A stretch of 64,000 bases of DNA from Candidatus Latescibacterota bacterium. GTDB lineage: Bacteria; JAAXHH01. Made by a program: the position numbers and the translations under genes. The notes beneath the pieces are model-generated. The model had not been told where the DNA came from. It made no database searches and was given only the letters and a program-made list of their open reading frames with translations. Shown in pieces: positions 499-7,569 of the stretch. The number at the start of each line of letters is the position of its first letter. Positions within the stretch are counted from its first letter, which is position 1. Where the stretch lies: the NCBI GenBank assembly GCA_022822725.1, contig JAJEAN010000002.1, positions 185,705 through 249,704 of the forward strand. Reading direction: 5' to 3'.

Positions 499-1269
499 TC
501 AGTCCCGCCAGTTCGCGGCGAAGTTGTGGACCGGCGCGTAGCCGAGATTGCGGACCTGGTTAATGAGGTACTTGGGATTCTCCAGGTCGGCGCAGATATG
601 GTACATGGCATACCGGCTGGTCCACCAGACCTGGTCCGATGCGTCGCGCTCCAGGGCGAGGCGGAAGGCCTGGGCCGCGTCCCGGTAGTCCAGCCACAGC
701 AGGTCGGGCGCCTGGCCGGCCACTTCCTCTTCGCTGACGAGGGTGCCCAGCCGAAGTCCCGTGACCGTCACCATGTGATCCCTTGCGAATTCCCGCGCGG
801 TATGCTCGCCCAGGTAGCGGGACATCTCCGGCATGTCGGGCTCGGGCAGCGGCTTCCACAGTTCGCTGATGTACACGTCGTCCGGATAGGGCCGGAAGAG
901 GTCCAGGGTACCGCCGTAGACGAATCGCCTGACGCCCGCTTCCACACCGGCCTTGAAGAGCTGGTGGGTGCCGCGCGTGGCCAGTTCCAGGAGTTGCTTC
1001 TCGCGCTCCACCTCGGACGCCGGCAGGTCCTGCGGCGGCTCGCCCGTGTGGACGATGGCGTCCATGCCGCGGACCGCTCGCCAGGCGAAGTCCTGGTCCA
1101 GCAGGCTGCCCTGGGCGGCATCGCCGGGCGATTCGCCACGCGTTTCGGCCCCGGTCGCGGCCGGCGCCTCCACGGGCGATTCGTCCACGAGGCGGAGCCT
1201 GTGGTCCTTCAGGGCTTCGGCCACCGCCTGTCCCAGCCGGCTCGCGGCGCCGGTGATCAGGATGTTCAT
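499..1269 (-). CDS. NAD-dependent epimerase/dehydratase family protein
   Basis: MNILITGAASRLGQ Rossmann start, with AAGGAG RBS upstream of the ATG at 1269. Confidence 0.85.
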   Translation of the reverse strand: MNILITGAASRLGQAVAEALKDHRLRLVDESPVEAPAATGAETRGESPGDAAQGSLLDQDFAWRAVRGMDAIVHTGEPPQDLPASEVEREKQLLELATRGTHQLFKAGVEAGVRRFVYGGTLDLFRPYPDDVYISELWKPLPEPDMPEMSRYLGEHTAREFARDHMVTVTGLRLGTLVSEEEVAGQAPDLLWLDYRDAAQAFRLALERDASDQVWWTSRYAMYHICADLENPKYLINQVRNLGYAPVHNFAANWRD

Positions 1270-1392
1270 GGTTGCTCCTTTGTGATTCTTTTTTCTGCCG
1301 AGTTTTCCGAATTCGACTCCGACTAATCCATTATAGGGCCACGCGACCGGCAGGGTCACACGCCCGGTGGCGAACCAGGTGACGAAACCGTC

Positions 1393-2223
1393 TCAGGCCT
1401 GCGGGTCGTCAAAGGTCCACAGGTCCAGGGCCGTCCCACCCAGCACACGGGGCATGTCCTCCGGCGCGATGAACTTCATTTCGTCGCGGACGACCGTCAG
1501 GGTCTGGCCGTACGCGGCGTTGGCAAGGCAAACGGGCCAGTCGGTGCCCCACAGGATGCGGCTGCCCCCGAAGGCCTGGTAGACCGCCTTGACCATGGCG
1601 TGGGTATCCGACCAGGGATAGCCCTGATCCGAAATGGACCAGGTATGGCTGATCTTCACGTATACCCTGGGATACCGGGCCAGGTCGAGGACGGCCTGGA
1701 TTTCGTCCGGCCGGTCCGGCCGCGCGTCGGCCATGTGGTCCACGACGACGTCGAGATCGGGAAACCGTTCCAGCAGGCTGGCCAGGTCGGGCAACCGGCC
1801 GGGCCGCGTCAGCATGAGCAGCGGAACCTCGAGTTCCTCGGCACGCCGGAAGATCGGCGGCATCAGGGGACCGCGGAACCAGTCGCCCGCTGGTCCTTCG
1901 GCAGGGCTCAGCCGCACGCCCTGGAAACCGTGCTCCTCCACCCAGCGGGCGAGGTGGTCCGGCGCGGCAGGATCTTCGGGATTGACGCGGCAGACCCCGG
2001 CAAACCGGTCCGGATAGGTGCGCAGGACGTGAGCAACGTATGTATTGTCCCAACGGTAGCCGATGAACTGTACCAGGACGGTCTTTTCCACGCCGTGCCG
2101 GTCCATCAGGTCCAGAAGCATTTCGGCCGTCCGGTCCTCGGCGGGCGGGGCGTCGTTCTCCGCGGGCCAGGGGAAGGCGGGATCGTTAACCCAGACGTGG
2201 GTATGGGGGTCGATGATGCGCAT
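1393..2223 (-). CDS. Amidohydrolase_2 family (sugar-lactonase-like)
   Basis: IIDPHTHVW, VVVDHM and WGTDWP motifs. Confidence 0.9.
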   Translation of the reverse strand: MRIIDPHTHVWVNDPAFPWPAENDAPPAEDRTAEMLLDLMDRHGVEKTVLVQFIGYRWDNTYVAHVLRTYPDRFAGVCRVNPEDPAAPDHLARWVEEHGFQGVRLSPAEGPAGDWFRGPLMPPIFRRAEELEVPLLMLTRPGRLPDLASLLERFPDLDVVVDHMADARPDRPDEIQAVLDLARYPRVYVKISHTWSISDQGYPWSDTHAMVKAVYQAFGGSRILWGTDWPVCLANAAYGQTLTVVRDEMKFIAPEDMPRVLGGTALDLWTFDDPQA

Positions 2224-2312
2224 GGATCACATATCAGTGTATAGTTTAGAACGAATCGCTAATTTCGAGGCCTGAACAAATTAAATCAAGGAGAAAGTGA
2301 GGTGCATGCGCA

Positions 2313-2697
2313 ATGGCGAGACAGAACATGATACTGGGCCTGCAGGCGATCTCGGCGATCGGTATTTTCGCGCTTGGCCTGTTAACCTATTTCGGCCAGT
2401 CGAGCCGGGACCTTCGATTGGAGATGAGACGGGGATTCGAGTCACTCGGGGTGCAAATGAGGGAAGAAAACCGCACCTTCAGAACGGAGATGAAACGAGA
2501 ATTCGCCGCCTTCAGAGCAGAAATGCAAGCAGAATTCGCCGCCTTCAGAGCAGAAATGAAAGCAGACTTCGCCGCTTTCAGAATGGAATAAAGCTGAATT
2601 CGCCGATATCAGGAAGGAGCTGAGAAACGTCAACACACGCCTCTCACGCATTGAAGGACATCTCGGGATTCCGCCGGTACAAATCCCGGTTCCCTGA
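2313..2697 (+). pseudogene. Membrane-anchored coiled-coil protein with 11-aa repeats, frameshifted at about 2589
   Basis: N-terminal TM, then EFAAFRAEMxA repeats and TAA at 2589-2591. The shifted frame continues KAEFADIRKELRNVNTRLSRIEGHLGIPPVQIPVP* to 2697. Confidence 0.7.
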
Positions 2698-2717
2698 TTA
2701 CCGCTGGCCTATTGGAA

Positions 2718-2801
2718 TCAGCGCGTCCGTCAGGCTCAGCGCGTCCGCCAGGTTCAGCGCGTCCGCCAGGCTCAGCGCGTCCGTCAGGCTCAGCGCGTCC
2801 G
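2718..2801. repeat. 18-bp tandem array (about 4.7 units) copying the last codons and stop of the NHL gene
   Basis: tcagcgcgtccgYcaggY units start at 2718, 2736, 2754, 2772 and 2790. Confidence 0.95.
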
Positions 2802-3656
2802 TACGAACTTCTGCAAACGGGCGTCGGCCTGGACTTCGCCGACGTAGAGGTCGCCGCGGGAATCCATCCAGATGCCGTGGGGGCATCCGGCGAACTCTCC
2901 GGGCCGGTCGCTGCGCCGGCCGCCTCCCCAGCTGGAGACGAGGTCGCCGTCCAGGGTGTATATGCCCACCTGCTGGTCGAGTTCGGCCACGTAGACGATA
3001 TCCTCTTCCGGATCGAAGTAGGTGGTGTCGGGCTTGCCGGGAACTGCGCGTTCCTCGAGGTAGTTTCCTTCCAGGTCGAAAAGTTGGATGCGCTCGTTGG
3101 TGCGATCGCACGCCCAGATCCTGTCATAGCGGTCTATGCGGACGCAATGGCTGAGTTCGAACCGGCCCGGACCCGAGCCCCAGCTTCCCCAGGAGTGGAT
3201 GTGGCGGCCCTCGGCATCGTAACGGTGGATCCGGGCATTCTCGTAACCGTCGGACACGTAGATGTCACCATTCGGCGCGACGACGGCATCGGTGGGCTTC
3301 CGGAAGGGATCGCCGTCTTTCGCACCCGGAACGCCGGGCGTGCCGATCACCCTCACCTGGTTCCCGACACGGTCGAACTTGCGGACGCAGTGATCCAGCC
3401 AGTCGGTGAGGTACAGATTGTCCTCGCCGTCGATGTAGATACCGTGCGCATCCTTGAGTATGCCGTCTCCGATCGTCTTGATGAAACGGCCGTCACGGTC
3501 GAATACGACCAGGGGATGCTCGCTCCGCGAATACACGTACACCCGGTCCTGCGAATCGCAGGCCACGCCCGTAATCCAGCCGAAGGACCAACCCTCCGGC
3601 AGGCTGTACCAGTTCTCCTGCACCTCGTAGGTGTACGCGCCGCTGCCGAAACTCAT
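2790..3656 (-). CDS. NHL-repeat beta-propeller (peptidyl-alpha-hydroxyglycine lyase-like)
   Basis: Repeated blades such as HGIYID, IYVSDGYENARIH and PHGIWMDSRGDLYVGEV. Start could also be 3662. Confidence 0.9.
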   Translation of the reverse strand: MSFGSGAYTYEVQENWYSLPEGWSFGWITGVACDSQDRVYVYSRSEHPLVVFDRDGRFIKTIGDGILKDAHGIYIDGEDNLYLTDWLDHCVRKFDRVGNQVRVIGTPGVPGAKDGDPFRKPTDAVVAPNGDIYVSDGYENARIHRYDAEGRHIHSWGSWGSGPGRFELSHCVRIDRYDRIWACDRTNERIQLFDLEGNYLEERAVPGKPDTTYFDPEEDIVYVAELDQQVGIYTLDGDLVSSWGGGRRSDRPGEFAGCPHGIWMDSRGDLYVGEVQADARLQKFVRTR

Positions 3657-3761
3657 GTGCATGCCTCTTTCGGTTGTCTATTCGTATTAATATGGTTCGT
3701 ATTCAAACGATAATATGCAGTGATGGGAATTACCCGATCAAGACGCGTACGGCAACAATGC

Positions 3762-3800
3762 TCAATGCTGGCCTTGTTCAATGCTGGCCATGCTCATTGC
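3762..3800. repeat. 16-bp tandem array copying the stop region of the 3794-4006 gene
   Basis: tcaatgctggccttgt / tcaatgctggccatgc / tcattgc at 3762, 3778 and 3794. Confidence 0.8.
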
Positions 3801-4006
3801 GTGCCGCCCGGGCTCCGGTACGCCGCCTCGATGCCGGAATAGAGATGCACGATCCAGCCGTAACCCAACGTCCACAGCATGACCGCGCCGACGAAATGGA
3901 TGAGCGCCGCCGGACTGCGGCCCTGGTACAATTGCCCCAGTCCGGGGATGACCAGACTGAATATCATGGCGCCAAACCTGGTGCCAAAGGGCGTGCCTCA
4001 AAGCAT
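3794..4006 (-). CDS. Small membrane protein (SLxIPGLGQLYxG motif) with in-frame UGA at codon 3; candidate selenoprotein
   Basis: AGGAG-7nt-ATG CTT TGA GGC... translates as ML(U)GTPFGTRFGAMIFSLVIPGLGQLYQGRSPAALIHFVGAVMLWTLGYGWIVHLYSGIEAAYRSPGGTQ*. Confidence 0.7.
3967..3986 (-). promoter_or_regulatory. Putative bacterial SECIS hairpin
   Basis: TGGCACCA-GGTT-TGGCGCCA begins 11 nt after the UGA. The apical CAGGTTTG resembles CAGGTCTG of E. coli fdhF. Confidence 0.6.
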
Positions 4007-4062
4007 GATGCAACTCCTGGGTAGTTGCCACCCGGCCCGATGGTGCGGGTGCTCCGGGCTTC

Positions 4063-4956
4063 TCAGGGCGCCTGTGCAACCCTGTGGGCCTGCTTCGGAT
4101 TGCGGCGCTGTTCCTCGAGGGCCGCGACCCAGCTGTCCGCCCAGGCCTGGTGATCGGTCAGTACGCGCTCCGGGTTCGACCGGCTCCGCACGCAGAAGTC
4201 GGGAAAGAAGGGCCGGCCCGTCGGCGCGCCGTAGGCCACGTACCGCAGGTCCAGGCTCCACCGCACGTCCCATTCGGTCAGGTTCGGCGTGGACCGGTGG
4301 GGTGTATACTGGCTCAGGAAGACGACCCCGCCCTTGCGCACTTCGGCCGGTTCCGCCTCGGTCTCGGGCATGAGGTCCGGCTTGATGCGCGTCCCGGCGT
4401 CCGACACGTGGTCGAGATGGCCGGTGTGGATCACGTTCGGGATCACCTCCAGGCATCCCCGTTCCACCGTGGCGTCCACCAGGGGCAGCCAGCAGGTCAG
4501 CGCCAGGGTCCGGTCCGACTCCGCCCAACTCACCCCCGAGTCCTGGTGCCAGGGCACATTGTACGACGGGCTGGCGTCCAGCCGCGACGGCGGCTTGGCC
4601 CGGATGTGCTGGATGGGCGAGCAGGTGATTTCGGGCCCGACTAAGGACTCCACGGCGTCAAGCAGGTTGTCGTTCCGGAGGAAGTCGAAGACCGGTTTCG
4701 CCCGCAGGTCGTAGATGTCCATGCCGCTGCCGATCTCGGTACTCTGGTCGAATACCCGCGCGTAACGCGTCAGGAAGGGTTCGTCCTCGTACAGGTCGGT
4801 GATCTTGCCCTCGGCCTGAAGGTCCCGCGCCTTCCGGTCGACGAACTCGGTCATGGTGTCGATCACGGGATCCAGGTCCGCGTCGGTCAGCACGTCCTCG
4901 ACGACCACGAGTCCGTGGTCATGAAACTCCGCCAGTTGCGCTTCGGTGAGGGCCAT
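4063..4956 (-). CDS. Phytanoyl-CoA dioxygenase (PhyH) family Fe(II)/2OG oxygenase
   Basis: PWHQD and PHRSTPN motifs, RWSLDLRY; AGGAGG RBS. Confidence 0.92.
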   Translation of the reverse strand: MALTEAQLAEFHDHGLVVVEDVLTDADLDPVIDTMTEFVDRKARDLQAEGKITDLYEDEPFLTRYARVFDQSTEIGSGMDIYDLRAKPVFDFLRNDNLLDAVESLVGPEITCSPIQHIRAKPPSRLDASPSYNVPWHQDSGVSWAESDRTLALTCWLPLVDATVERGCLEVIPNVIHTGHLDHVSDAGTRIKPDLMPETEAEPAEVRKGGVVFLSQYTPHRSTPNLTEWDVRWSLDLRYVAYGAPTGRPFFPDFCVRSRSNPERVLTDHQAWADSWVAALEEQRRNPKQAHRVAQAP

Positions 4957-4975
4957 GGGGAATGCCTCCTGAACG

Positions 4976-5017
4976 GTCGATGGCCGGTGCGAATCTGTCG
5001 ATGGCCGGTGCGAATCT
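4976..5017. repeat. Perfect 21-bp direct duplication in the phyH 5' UTR
   Basis: gtcgatggccggtgcgaatct x2. Confidence 0.95.
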
Positions 5018-5029
5018 GTTGCTCACAAT

Positions 5030-5058
5030 AAGATACAAGTTAAACGGTGCATTGGCAA
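5030..5058 (-). promoter_or_regulatory. Sigma70-type promoter for phyH
   Basis: TTGCCA-17nt-TATCTT on the minus strand. Confidence 0.55.
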
Positions 5059-5114
5059 CACGGGAGGATCGGAAATAGCAGCTCCTGCCGGACCGGAACG
5101 ACGGGCAGGCGTAA

Positions 5115-5447
5115 TCAATCCTGGTGAAACACCTCTTCCATCTCCGCCCACCATTCGCCTTCCTTCCGCGTCGGCAGCGGCTCCTGCATCGGCATCATGA
5201 TGTCCCACCACTCCTGGGTCGTGGGATCGGCGGCCATCTTCGCCATGTCCGCCTTGAAGTCGTCGCCCACGTATTCGAAATAGGAAAAGAGGTAGCCGTC
5301 CTTCAGGTAGATGGAGTAGTTGGTGATGTTGCATTCCGTGATCATCTTGGCCACGCCCGGCCAGATCTCGACATGGTATTCCTTGTATTCCTCAATCCGG
5401 TCCGGCCGGACCTTGAGGACCATGCCGTAGCGTTGATGTGATGCCAT
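5115..5447 (-). CDS. rhaM: L-rhamnose mutarotase family
   Basis: EEYKEYHVEIWP, NYSIYL and MEEVFH motifs; AAGGAG RBS. Confidence 0.88.
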   Translation of the reverse strand: MASHQRYGMVLKVRPDRIEEYKEYHVEIWPGVAKMITECNITNYSIYLKDGYLFSYFEYVGDDFKADMAKMAADPTTQEWWDIMMPMQEPLPTRKEGEWWAEMEEVFHQD

Positions 5448-5507
5448 TTCAGGCTCCTTGTGATGGCTGATAGTAGGGTGGCGGCGCGTCATGCCCGCCG
5501 CGATTCC

Positions 5508-6494
5508 TCACGCCGGCGTCGGTGCGTCCTCGGGGATCAACGCTTCTTCCCGGAGTTCAGTCCAGAAATCCGCGGGAATCTCGACTTCAAACATCCGCAC
5601 GTTCTCGTCTACTTCCTCGGGCGACCGCGCGCCCGGAATGACGGCGGCCACCGCCGGATGGGCCAGGGGGAACTGCAGGGCCGCCGCTTTGAGGGGCGTG
5701 CCGTGGCGGTTGCAGACCGCTTCGACGCGCCGCACCTTGTCCACGATTTGCGCCGGCGCCTTGCGGTAGTCGAATCTGGCCCCGTCCACGGCGCCCTGCG
5801 CCAGGATGCCGCTGTTGTACGGTCCGCCTATGATGATACTGATGTTCCTTTCCTCGCACAGGGGCAGAAGCCGCTTGAGCGCCGTATGATCCACCAGAGT
5901 GTATCTACCAGCGCACAGAAAGCAGTCGAAATCGCCTTCGGTGGCGAAACGGGCAAGCATCTTCGCCTGGTTCATGCCGACCCCGACCGCGCGGATGACC
6001 CCTTCGTCGCGGAGCCGAACGAGTGCCCGATAGCTGCCCTTCATCGCTTCTTCGTAGTGATTGTCCGGATCGTGAATATGGAGGATTTCGACCCGGTCGA
6101 GTCCGAGGCGGGAGAGGCTTTCCTCCAGGGAGCGCAGCGTGCCGTCGTAACTGTAGTCGAAGACGGGACCGACGGGCGGAAGATCGTCGGACCAGACGTC
6201 CTGGTCGCGCTCCGGGTCGCGCACGAGGAGGCGGCCCACCTTGGTGGCGAGGACAAAGGATCGGCGGTCGCGGCTTGAAAGCACCGCCCCCAGGCGGGTC
6301 TCGCTCACGCCGCTGCCGTAGAGCGGCGCCGTATCGAAGAACCCCAGGCCGTGGTCGAGGTAGGTATCTACGACCCGGGCGGCGGCATCATCGGTAACGC
6401 CCTGGTACAGGCCGGCCAGGGGCGCACCGCCGAGTCCCAGGCGGTTGACCTTGAGCCCCGTGCGGCCGATCTCCGCCCGGTCATCCCTCTTCAT
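5508..6494 (-). CDS. Aldo/keto reductase (D-threo-aldose/L-fucose dehydrogenase-like)
   Basis: FFDTAPLYGSGVSE, ATKVGRLL, FDYSYDG and IHDPD motifs. Confidence 0.9.
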   Translation of the reverse strand: MKRDDRAEIGRTGLKVNRLGLGGAPLAGLYQGVTDDAAARVVDTYLDHGLGFFDTAPLYGSGVSETRLGAVLSSRDRRSFVLATKVGRLLVRDPERDQDVWSDDLPPVGPVFDYSYDGTLRSLEESLSRLGLDRVEILHIHDPDNHYEEAMKGSYRALVRLRDEGVIRAVGVGMNQAKMLARFATEGDFDCFLCAGRYTLVDHTALKRLLPLCEERNISIIIGGPYNSGILAQGAVDGARFDYRKAPAQIVDKVRRVEAVCNRHGTPLKAAALQFPLAHPAVAAVIPGARSPEEVDENVRMFEVEIPADFWTELREEALIPEDAPTPA

Positions 6495-7569
6495 CTGTTT
6501 CGCCCTGCGTCTCGCCCTGCATGGACTCCCCGCGCAGGAGGAAGGCCCGGATATCGTAGCGGCCGGGGCGCTCCACGGGCAGGTCGCCCGCCTCGATCAT
6601 CTCCTCGATGGGCGAACTGTGGGTGCGCACGGGCATCTGGACGACCTCGTGCAGGCGGGCGGACTCGTAGATACCCATGATGATCTCCACGGCGGCCCGG
6701 CCGTTGGACGCCTCGCCCCGGTGTTCGGACTTGCCCTCGATCCAGTCCGCCAGTTCCACGGCCTGGCCCACGCTCGGGTCCTCGCCGGTGGACGGCCGCT
6801 CTTCCCAGCCGCCGGTCTTCGAGTTGATGAGCAGGACGCGCTGTTCGTTCACGTCCATCATGCCGTCCGTGCCGTAGAGGTACCCGCCCTGCCGCCGTTC
6901 AGGGTGCATCTCCTGCAGGAGCTGCCCCACGGCGCCGTTGTCGAAGCCCACGATGCCCGCGCTGCGGTCCTCGATCCGGATGTCGCGCTCGTACCGGTCC
7001 GTCTTGCGTTCGATGTTGCCGAGTACCCATTCGGGCGCGGGATCGCTCATGACGTAGCGCATGAAATCGAACATGTGGGAGCAGTCGTTGAGCAGGCCCT
7101 GGCTGCCGCTGCAGTGGACGTGCCGCACGTCGCCGATGGCGCCTTCGGCGATGAGGTTCCGGGCGTCGGTCCACACCGGGTTGAACCGGCGCTGGTGGGC
7201 GATGGCCAGCTTGACGTCGTTCCGGCGGGCCGCGATCATCATCTCGTCGCATTCGCCCATATTGACGGCCATGGGTTTCTCGCAGAGAATCGCCTTGGGC
7301 CGGCGCGCGCAGGCGGCGATGGTCAGGGGGGCGTGGAGCTTGTGCCAGGTACAGATGCTGACGACGTCCAGCCCCTCCTCGTCCATCATCTCACGGGCGT
7401 CGGCGTAACGTTTACCTATATCGTACCGGTCGCCGAAATCCTGCCTGGCCTCCGCAACCGGGTCCGAAAGCGCGACGACCTCGAACCGCTCTTCTCCCAG
7501 GTATCCCTTCATGTGCAGGTGCGAGATGCTGCCGCACCCGATTATGCCGACACGATAGACCGTGGACAT
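6481..7569 (-). CDS. Gfo/Idh/MocA oxidoreductase
   Basis: VGIIGCGSIS and CEKPMA motifs. Confidence 0.92.
   Translation of the reverse strand: MSTVYRVGIIGCGSISHLHMKGYLGEERFEVVALSDPVAEARQDFGDRYDIGKRYADAREMMDEEGLDVVSICTWHKLHAPLTIAACARRPKAILCEKPMAVNMGECDEMMIAARRNDVKLAIAHQRRFNPVWTDARNLIAEGAIGDVRHVHCSGSQGLLNDCSHMFDFMRYVMSDPAPEWVLGNIERKTDRYERDIRIEDRSAGIVGFDNGAVGQLLQEMHPERRQGGYLYGTDGMMDVNEQRVLLINSKTGGWEERPSTGEDPSVGQAVELADWIEGKSEHRGEASNGRAAVEIIMGIYESARLHEVVQMPVRTHSSPIEEMIEAGDLPVERPGRYDIRAFLLRGESMQGETQGETDEEG

Follow-up and report, generated by a model that had tools for sequence, protein, structure and literature searches.

A 64,000-nucleotide stretch of DNA (the window; contig JAJEAN010000002.1, positions 185,705 to 249,704 of the forward strand) from an uncultured Candidatus Latescibacterota bacterium contains, on its minus strand, a small gene with an in-frame TGA at codon 3. 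Comparison with its relatives indicates that this gene very probably represents a real, previously unlisted family of selenoproteins, in which UGA at codon 3 is read as selenocysteine (Sec). The genome to which the window belongs, termed G000, has 3.8 Mb in 9 contigs and a GC content of 62%. An earlier note, made from the letters of the DNA alone, had proposed that the UGA is recoded, giving a small membrane protein that begins M-L-U-G-T-P-F (U stands for Sec). The genus-wide conservation of the TGA and the presence of a Sec machinery support this proposal, and we infer that selenium is inserted at codon 3.

A small gene with TGA as its third codon

The start codon of the small gene (ATG, codon 1, 4004..4006, minus strand, as for all features of the gene described here) is preceded by the Shine-Dalgarno sequence AGGAG (4014..4018), from which it is separated by a 7-nt spacer, ttgcatc. 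Codon 2 is CTT (Leu, 4001-4003) and codon 3 is the in-frame TGA that forms the candidate Sec codon (3998..4000). It is followed by 67 open codons, which lead up to a TGA stop at 3796-3794. The full coding sequence, including this stop (3794-3796), covers 3794..4006 and specifies a protein of 70 residues that starts M-L-U-G. With the codon-3 TGA translated as U the product reads MLUGTPFGTRFGAMIFSLVIPGLGQLYQGRSPAALIHFVGAVMLWTLGYGWIVHLYSGIEAAYRSPGGTQ. A hairpin that resembles a Sec insertion sequence (SECIS), UGGCACCA-GGUU-UGGCGCCA, occupies 3967..3986 and starts 11 nt after the UGA. Its core stem extends over 3968-3985 and its apical loop, GGUU, over 3975-3978; positions 3982 and 3971 face each other as an A.C mismatch in the window copy. 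The final base of the hairpin is at the same time the A of an in-frame ATG at 3967, which is codon 14. The positions that the earlier note had assigned to the Shine-Dalgarno sequence, the spacer, ATG CTT TGA, the 67 codons, the hairpin and the 11-nt gap all proved exact on the minus strand.

The TGA is conserved throughout the genus

Orthologs were collected by a six-frame search of 61 genomes, among which the genus is represented by G000 and 27 others. The protein was found in G000 and in 26 of these 27 (27 loci from 27 genomes); more distant genomes gave weak matches to other proteins with a PGLGQ motif only. A scan of metagenomes yielded eight loci, four of the Sec type, one of which duplicates locus L041, and four of a non-Sec form. 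The combined alignment consists of the 27 loci and the four Sec-type contigs, in total 31 sequences, 30 of which are distinct. The G023 lineage (L053, L077 and L120), a genus member with a low-GC genome of 2.5 Mb, keeps the Sec gene, selB and tRNA-Sec.

All 27 genus loci share a purine-rich Shine-Dalgarno block, ATG-CTY-TGA, and a TGA that is in frame with the conserved protein. The block contains GAG and is equally distant from the start codon in every one of them. The ATG itself is invariant and is followed by CTT in 25 loci and by CTC in two. The four Sec-type metagenome contigs likewise have a Shine-Dalgarno sequence, ATG-CTY-TGA and the hairpin. Codon 3 is always TGA, and TGC, TGT and TGG are found in none of the 31 sequences. 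Homologs with Trp or Arg at this site, which the earlier note had asked about, were thus not encountered among the 27 loci and the four contigs. Moreover, there are no indels up to codon 45 in the 27 loci, and the frame from the TGA to the conserved motif is open and indel-free in all 31 sequences.

The conserved motif consists of residues 17-25 (S-L-x-I-P-G-L-G-Q), which are invariant or nearly so and are common to relatives in other phyla; they must, therefore, be translated. The in-frame ATG of codon 14 is found in 12 of the 27 loci, and elsewhere this codon is TTC, TTA, CTT, CTC, TTT, TTG or ACA. In 10 of the 27 loci neither ATG nor GTG nor TTG occurs in codons 4-16. These ten loci lack an alternative canonical start before the conserved motif, which means that the UGA must be read through. 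Other potential start codons are scattered over codons 5, 7, 13, 14 and 15, with a Shine-Dalgarno-like match for the codon-7 TTG of two loci only. The sole conserved Shine-Dalgarno site is that of the codon-1 ATG. Thus, as far as the aligned sequences tell, reading through the TGA is the only conserved route to residues 17-25. The same counts bear out the remark in the earlier note that the ATG at 3967 has no ribosome-binding site, since no Shine-Dalgarno-like match precedes it, and they answer its question about homologs that start at a downstream Met.

The ratio of non-synonymous to synonymous substitution rates (dN/dS) is 0.30 (codons 17-45) and 0.29 (codons 8-13, which form the hairpin), compared to 0.74 for codons 4-7 and 0.80 for codons 14-16. 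Synonymous differences amount to a proportion (pS) of 0.25 over the hairpin and of 0.31 over the gene body. Judged by these values the protein is under purifying selection. The TGA never changes though the adjoining codons 4-7 vary freely, and selection therefore acts on the TGA itself. Public gene calls were checked among the matches listed (120 of 1250), from which 35 sequences, 18 of them close (P0002-P0019), were compared. The close matches begin at various downstream codons and in none of the 18 is the start M-L-U or M-L-C, in line with the prediction of the earlier note that gene callers would truncate or miss the gene.

The genus has a Sec machinery and a classical selenoprotein

The genome of the window encodes a complete Sec machinery: selB (345 bits over its frame), a tRNA-Sec gene directly downstream of it (70.6 bits; reported by ARAGORN as tRNA-SeC with anticodon tca), selA (487 bits) and selD (263 bits). 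All four score above the curated cut-offs, so that the machinery for which the earlier note had wanted the genome inspected is present. Of the 28 genomes of the genus, 27 have a selB above its cut-off and 27 have tRNA-Sec; the exception is in both cases G024, which is 87% complete. TGA is the commonest ordinary stop codon in G000 (1221 of 2270 long open reading frames (ORFs)), which indicates a standard genetic code without any code change. The true selD match (G000:C9:294246-295187) lies in an open frame of 816 aa without internal stop; SelD seems to be fused to another domain and to have no Sec of its own. A second, divergent pair was seen at G000:C6:55753-59093, where a selD-like gene (103 bits) stands beside a selA-like gene (155 bits), both below cut-off.

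As a positive control we used a Prx-like selenoprotein of 244 aa with a WUPLC motif (G000:C9:1873484-1874215, minus strand). All 28 loci found, which come from 27 genomes, have retained the TGA, and the 36 nt behind it vary at one position only, through a single substitution in L100, the other 35 being invariant. This conservation shows that the genus decodes Sec. The protein was not found in the G023 lineage at E ≤ 1e-20. In its minimum free energy fold a long stem topped by a UAC loop has the UGA at its base, and an alternative 5-bp stem has a UGGGGCA loop. The Prx-like protein is a UxxC thiol:disulfide oxidoreductase of a family that is listed in Table 1 of a 2026 review (PMC13188914). It shares with the small protein the genome and a TGA kept across the genus. 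However, it is a soluble or secreted protein with a thioredoxin fold and many Cys homologs, whereas the small protein is a membrane protein that has neither that fold nor a Cys homolog.

Screening of G000 for an in-frame TGA between coding flanks was noisy. A first version picked antisense frames and was rejected; with the refined versions the number of candidates was 42 and 25, and the Prx-like WUPLC protein alone among them was convincing. The screen is blind to an N-terminal Sec because it requires 30-40 codons on both sides of the TGA. A Sec-type formate dehydrogenase was not seen in G000, where a molybdopterin oxidoreductase query gave four matches without internal stop.

A hairpin at fixed distance from the UGA

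In the alignment of 31 sequences (30 distinct) the 7-pair helix of the hairpin is paired in 90% of the cells, as against 33-49% if the 3' partner is slid by 1-3 columns. The spacing between the UGA and the hairpin is identical, with no indels. Loop columns 55 (G) and 56 (U) are invariant, pairs 51-60 and 52-59 never vary, and pair 48-63 is either G-C or G-U. Among the 30 distinct rows, pair 50-61 is G-C in 18, A-U in five, G-U in one and A.C in six. Pair 47-64 underwent two changes from G-C to A-U, both in the low-GC lineage. Most of the genus has a perfect G-C at the fourth pair and a continuous stem of 6-7 bp. Independently, RNAalifold selects a 5-bp core with an AGGUUY loop. Hairpins with compensatory changes are found in the G023 lineage (AGUACCA-AGUU-UGGUGCU and AGUGCCA-GGUU-UGGUGCU). 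The hairpin 11 nt after the UGA and its GGTT loop, both pointed out in the earlier note, are thus kept in all 27 loci and in the four Sec-type contigs.

The bacterial SECIS consensus as given in PMC13188914 asks for a loop that opens with G and then G or U and that lies 16-37 nt from the UGA. The hairpin of the small gene agrees with it, having a GGUU loop (AGGUUY if the A-U pair is open) that starts 21-22 nt after the U of the UGA. Scanning G000 for CCAGGTTYGG-like loops gave 421 loose matches; the exact loop with a TGA 19 nt upstream is found only here, and the scan revealed no further genes. An Rfam search returned chance-level matches only.

The best comparison is fdhF of E. coli K-12 (formate dehydrogenase H, Sec140), in which the UGA is followed after 11 nt by GGUUGCAGGUCUGCACC, with apical CAGGUCUG. 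This layout, which the earlier note had cited, was verified on the K-12 sequence. Both genes have an 11-nt spacer and a small stem-loop whose tetraloop contains GGU and is closed by an A-U pair (CAGGUCUG in fdhF, CAGGUUUG in the window), and in both the loop G is 22-23 nt from the U of the UGA; the loop is GGUC in K-12 and GGUU here. There are also differences. The small gene has no bulged U in the upper stem, and its window copy has the A.C mismatch at the fourth pair instead. The lower stem, which includes the UGA, is weakly predicted in the small gene. Finally, the UGA is codon 3 and not codon 140, and the host proteins are unrelated.

A predicted DUF6677-like membrane protein, in most species with a C-terminal cysteine

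The protein of the window matches the Pfam model DUF6677 (PF20382) weakly, with 21.8 bits, which is below the gathering cut-off of 24.3, whereas the L049 ortholog, with 27.0 bits, is above it. DUF6677 is matched by 24 of the 31 aligned members at E ≤ 0.01. The Pfam model TM2 (PF05154) was matched neither by the window protein at E ≤ 0.1 nor by any of the 31 members at E ≤ 0.01. An AlphaFold2 model of the L049 ortholog, built with alignment A3, is a helical hairpin (helices 7-19, 23-27, 31-47 and 51-63) with a mean predicted local distance difference test (pLDDT) score of 73.9. Two membrane helices are predicted from this model, at about residues 11-27, which include the SLxIPGLGQ motif, and about 31-63, with a short GRR-type loop between them (3818..3976). 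The product is a predicted two-helix membrane protein related to DUF6677, with a SLxIPGLGQ motif, the membrane topology being a deduction from the helices.

Small membrane proteins of the DUF6677/DUF5683 type resemble the Sec form in length (about 67-72 aa) and in the stretches SLxIPGLGQLxQGR, HFVLA..LW and GWIVHLxS. One source labels this wider family 'TM2 domain-containing membrane protein YozV'. It is found in metagenome-assembled genomes labelled Marinimicrobia, Xanthomonadales, Pirellulaceae, Nitrospirales, Cytophagia and Gemmatimonadota. In contrast to the Sec form, the wider family begins M-S/A/P-G-Q-G-S-G-G-N-V, with neither Sec nor Cys in this region, and has no C-terminal Cys. The Sec form is characterized by M-L-U-G...G-A-R-F-G-A, GYGW and a G-E-S-C tail.

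The C-terminal Cys is present in 25 of 27 orthologs, 1-5 (usually 3-4) residues from the end (...G-E-S-C-x-x). It is missing in the window copy and in L037. In the window copy a stop TGA stands exactly at the Cys column, inside a 16-nt sequence that occurs three times: the three tandem 16-nt units (3759..3806) span the last codons, the stop and the spacer after the small gene. Related duplications in L028 and L037 repeat units of the form ...TGT TGA / CGT TGA, and one RNA-library contig is without one of the 16-nt units. In L032-L036 the tail derives from the ribosome-binding region of the downstream NHL gene after a deletion.

Two membrane helices would bring both termini of the protein to one side of the membrane. 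For this reason it is reasonable to propose that Sec3 pairs with the C-terminal Cys, be it as a selenylsulfide or as a pair that binds a metal or a chalcogen. The AlphaFold2 model is silent on a contact between the two, because both tails are of low confidence (residues 1-3 and 68-70, pLDDT <50). Since the window copy lacks the C-terminal Cys, Sec3 must also be able to act alone.

Genomic neighbourhood

The small gene lies between genes for a PhyH-family dioxygenase upstream (297 aa, 4063..4956, minus strand) and an NHL-repeat beta-propeller protein downstream (290 aa, 2790..3662, minus strand). Pfam matches with E values of 5e-19 and 1.6e-17, respectively, uphold these two assignments, which the earlier note had also given. 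From the stop codon of the PhyH gene to the ATG of the small gene there are 56 nt. Pfam searches of seven divergent loci showed the order PhyH gene, small gene, NHL gene in all seven, and G023, the most divergent of the genomes, has it as well.

Metatranscriptome contigs of relatives span the small gene, and one of 1085 nt bridges the NHL gene, the small gene and the PhyH gene. These contigs are a weak hint of expression, as DNA can occur in RNA libraries and contigs give no expression level. The sequencing runs that contain the stretch carry the labels sponge, coral or marine metagenome.

The small gene is embedded in a long same-strand run of enzyme-like ORFs (window 499-7569, minus strand). 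Labelled from their translations alone, the other ORFs of the run are epimerase-like, amidohydrolase-like, rhamnose-mutarotase-like, aldo/keto-reductase-like and Gfo/Idh/MocA-like, and the arrangement looks like one catabolic operon. A 92-aa ORF with a repeated FAAFRAEM-type motif is found on the plus strand (window 2313-2800). Beside it, the stretch between the NHL gene and the next gene translates into short tandem peptide repeats in several frames (SARP.G / GRAEP).

How UGA at codon 3 may be decoded

Translation would start at the ATG at 4006 and the third codon, UGA, would be decoded as Sec. By analogy with the E. coli model, SelB carrying Sec-tRNA(Sec) would bind the hairpin, which is formed by codons 8-13. 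An initiating ribosome covers a defined stretch of mRNA, its footprint, and the hairpin, which begins about 22 nt after the A of the ATG, is probably just outside it. SelB could, therefore, already be in place when the UGA reaches the A site after one translocation. An arrangement of this kind has been studied by Kotini et al. (2015) with purified E. coli components, where an mRNA of the type AUG-UGA-SECIS gave fMet-Sec on about 40% of the ribosomes (PMC4513850). The likeness consists in a Sec codon that follows the initiation region and a SECIS at the ribosome entrance. The difference is that the construct is artificial and from E. coli, whereas in the natural gene AUG and UGA are separated by one sense codon (CUU).

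Points against a selenoprotein and rival explanations

Several results weigh against the conclusion that the small gene encodes a selenoprotein, some of which concern the hairpin. The window's own hairpin has the A.C mismatch. When the window region is folded, 94 of 200 shuffled sequences are as good for a 91-nt segment (z -0.01) and 75 of 200 for a 46-nt segment (z -0.20). We also applied a loose SECIS-like filter, which asks for at least five consecutive pairs, at least three of them G-C, a loop of 3-8 nt that opens with GG or GU, and a distance of 16-37 nt between the UGA and the loop. Of the ordinary TGA stops that end long ORFs in G000, 183 of 1521 (12%) pass, as do 1564 of 13343 random TGA triplets, but the window hairpin fails it, because the A.C mismatch interrupts the stem. 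A strict version of the filter, which also missed the window's own hairpin, was discarded. In the window sequence alone the hairpin is thus no better than chance, and the case rests on the comparison with other genomes. There, covariation is modest. The check for covarying bases proposed in the earlier note succeeded in so far as the hairpin is conserved and shows some compensatory change, but only two of the seven pairs change on both sides, and the control in which the partner is slid by -3 has a higher covariation score than the true helix. Finally, synonymous sites are conserved throughout the gene (all 24 codons for R31 are AGG, and all 21 for V39 are GTC), so that the codon choice in the hairpin (AGG, GGC) is not diagnostic. 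An argument from the rare AGG and the TTT in the hairpin was dropped for this reason.

Other points on the same side concern the protein and its translation. Cys homologs exist for nearly all known selenoprotein families (PMC12013277). At the Sec column of the small protein, Cys was found neither in 12 aligned proteins of the wider family nor in eight wider-family loci, the search being confined to the sequence collections used here; the residues at this column are Ser, Pro, Ala, Asn, Thr or Glu. Hence, of the homologs with Cys or TGA at position 3 that the earlier note had hoped for, those with TGA are conserved, but there is no Cys form. Such a homolog is the usual criterion in SECIS-independent searches and the main formal one that the small protein lacks. 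Its absence is unusual and explains why pipelines based on homology would overlook the gene (PMC12013277). Moreover, the small gene is lacking in G012, a genome that is 99% complete, in which the stop of the PhyH gene and the start of the NHL gene overlap as ATGA (G012:C1:15633-17386, locus L125, 2300-2460). Because of this, the small gene is either dispensable for its neighbours or was inserted after G012 had branched off. As to translation, addition of release factor 2 (RF2) to the AUG-UGA-SECIS mRNA reduced Sec insertion from about 40% to 6%, while RF2 had no effect on a construct in which 12 residues precede Sec (PMC4513850). By analogy, Sec decoding at codon 3 is possible and may be inefficient or tunable.

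Inefficient or tunable decoding would allow a selenium-gated regulatory reading, which we consider unlikely. Sec would be inserted, but its role would be to tie synthesis of the small protein to the selenium supply, with a selenol that has no catalytic role and with coupling or polarity that may affect the NHL and amidohydrolase genes. In E. coli a SECIS-like element in the selAB leader is reported to regulate translation via SelB. The Ser, Pro or Ala in place of Cys at the Sec column of the wider family would suit such a role, as would the window copy and L037, which have no C-terminal partner Cys, the direct coupling of PhyH and NHL genes in G012 and the strong exposure of a start-adjacent UGA to RF2 in vitro (PMC4513850). 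A pure regulatory device, however, needs no conserved protein, yet dN/dS is 0.30, and the clade in which Sec3 arose is also the one that gained the C-terminal Cys, which 25 of the 27 loci retain.

The efficient termination by RF2 at a start-proximal UGA in vitro (PMC4513850) would also fit a different reading, in which ATG-CTT-TGA is a two-codon upstream ORF (Met-Leu-stop), the hairpin is regulatory and the protein starts downstream, at Met14 in the window and, in other loci, at different or non-canonical codons. The ATG at codon 14 of the window and the downstream starts in public gene calls (the 18 close matches, among the matches listed) are in its favour. We regard it as very unlikely, since codon 14 is ATG in 12 of 27 loci only, codons 4-16 offer neither ATG nor GTG nor TTG in ten loci, and the candidate downstream starts have no Shine-Dalgarno-like match except for the codon-7 TTG in two loci. 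Moreover, the one conserved Shine-Dalgarno sequence serves codon 1, and the open, indel-free frame between TGA and motif in 31 sequences is at odds with a two-codon ORF that ends at the TGA. The chances are slimmer still that the UGA is read through by a near-cognate Trp or Cys tRNA, with the hairpin acting as a stimulator of readthrough only. The short hairpin, imperfect in the window, speaks for this reading, but a GGU loop at the fdhF-like spacing of 11 nt is a SelB-type signature, the genus maintains selA, selB, selD and tRNA-Sec, and TGG or TGC, each one mutation away, is used in none of the 31 sequences. Finally, it is hardly credible that the window copy is a decaying remnant, as its A.C mismatch, the stop codon at the former Cys column inside the threefold 16-nt repeat, through whose expansion the C-terminal Cys would have been lost, and the clean loss of the gene in G012 might suggest. 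All invariant residues and signals are intact in this copy, and the A.C state is common to six of 27 species and has, therefore, persisted. In addition, a 93%-identical protein, also without the Cys, is found in another data set (P0016), and, as weak evidence, RNA-library contigs from relatives span the gene.

A possible selenoprotein without a cysteine ancestor

With a new selenoprotein family as the preferred reading, we tentatively propose, as a possibility that we would not yet call probable, a lineage-specific selenoprotein without a Cys ancestor. Its gene would be a natural AUG-N-UGA-SECIS arrangement, a 'selenium-gated start' in which SelB is parked at the edge of the initiation site, and its product would carry a lone selenol at the membrane surface, on a short tail, with the C-terminal Cys as its partner in most species. 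A widespread small membrane protein may have been the source, with a Ser-type codon at its residue 2 or 3 turning into the Sec codon, and Sec3 is possibly the Sec residue closest to the start codon in any natural gene. The eukaryotic selenoproteins SELENOK and SELENOS are likewise short membrane proteins with a terminal Sec, and no sequence relationship to them is expected. They are single-pass, membrane-anchored proteins that have a single Sec near the C-terminus, in a flexible tail, and a SECIS in the 3'-UTR.

Bacterial recoding of UGA to Sec with the help of a SECIS in the reading frame is a familiar system; what is new is the family, the placement of Sec at residue 3 and the lack of a Cys form. 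The earlier note knew of no selenoprotein of this small IPGLGQ membrane type. NCBIfam release 20 has no model for it, giving noise matches only (E 0.12 and 0.29), and Table 1 of the 2026 review, with 119 families or subfamilies, lists no DUF6677, YozV or small-membrane type (PMC13188914). The main text of BSepDB does not mention membrane proteins or these phyla. Text searches of the literature (selenoprotein combined with Latescibacter, DUF6677, bacterial SECIS and TsoA/LULAXC), which covered articles without their supplements, found no report of such a protein.

Should the small gene indeed encode a selenoprotein, it would add a family that current pipelines cannot find, because these rely on Sec/Cys pairs and on ORFs that are long enough, whereas here there is no Cys form and only two codons precede the UGA. 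The annotation of the gene would be corrected across a genus of sponge- and coral-associated bacteria, for which public calls use several different wrong codons as the start. The gene would also offer a natural test case for SelB-dependent recoding near the start codon, so far probed only with artificial AUG-UGA-SECIS mRNA. Finally, it would give the unstudied small membrane proteins of the DUF6677 type their first chemically distinctive residue.

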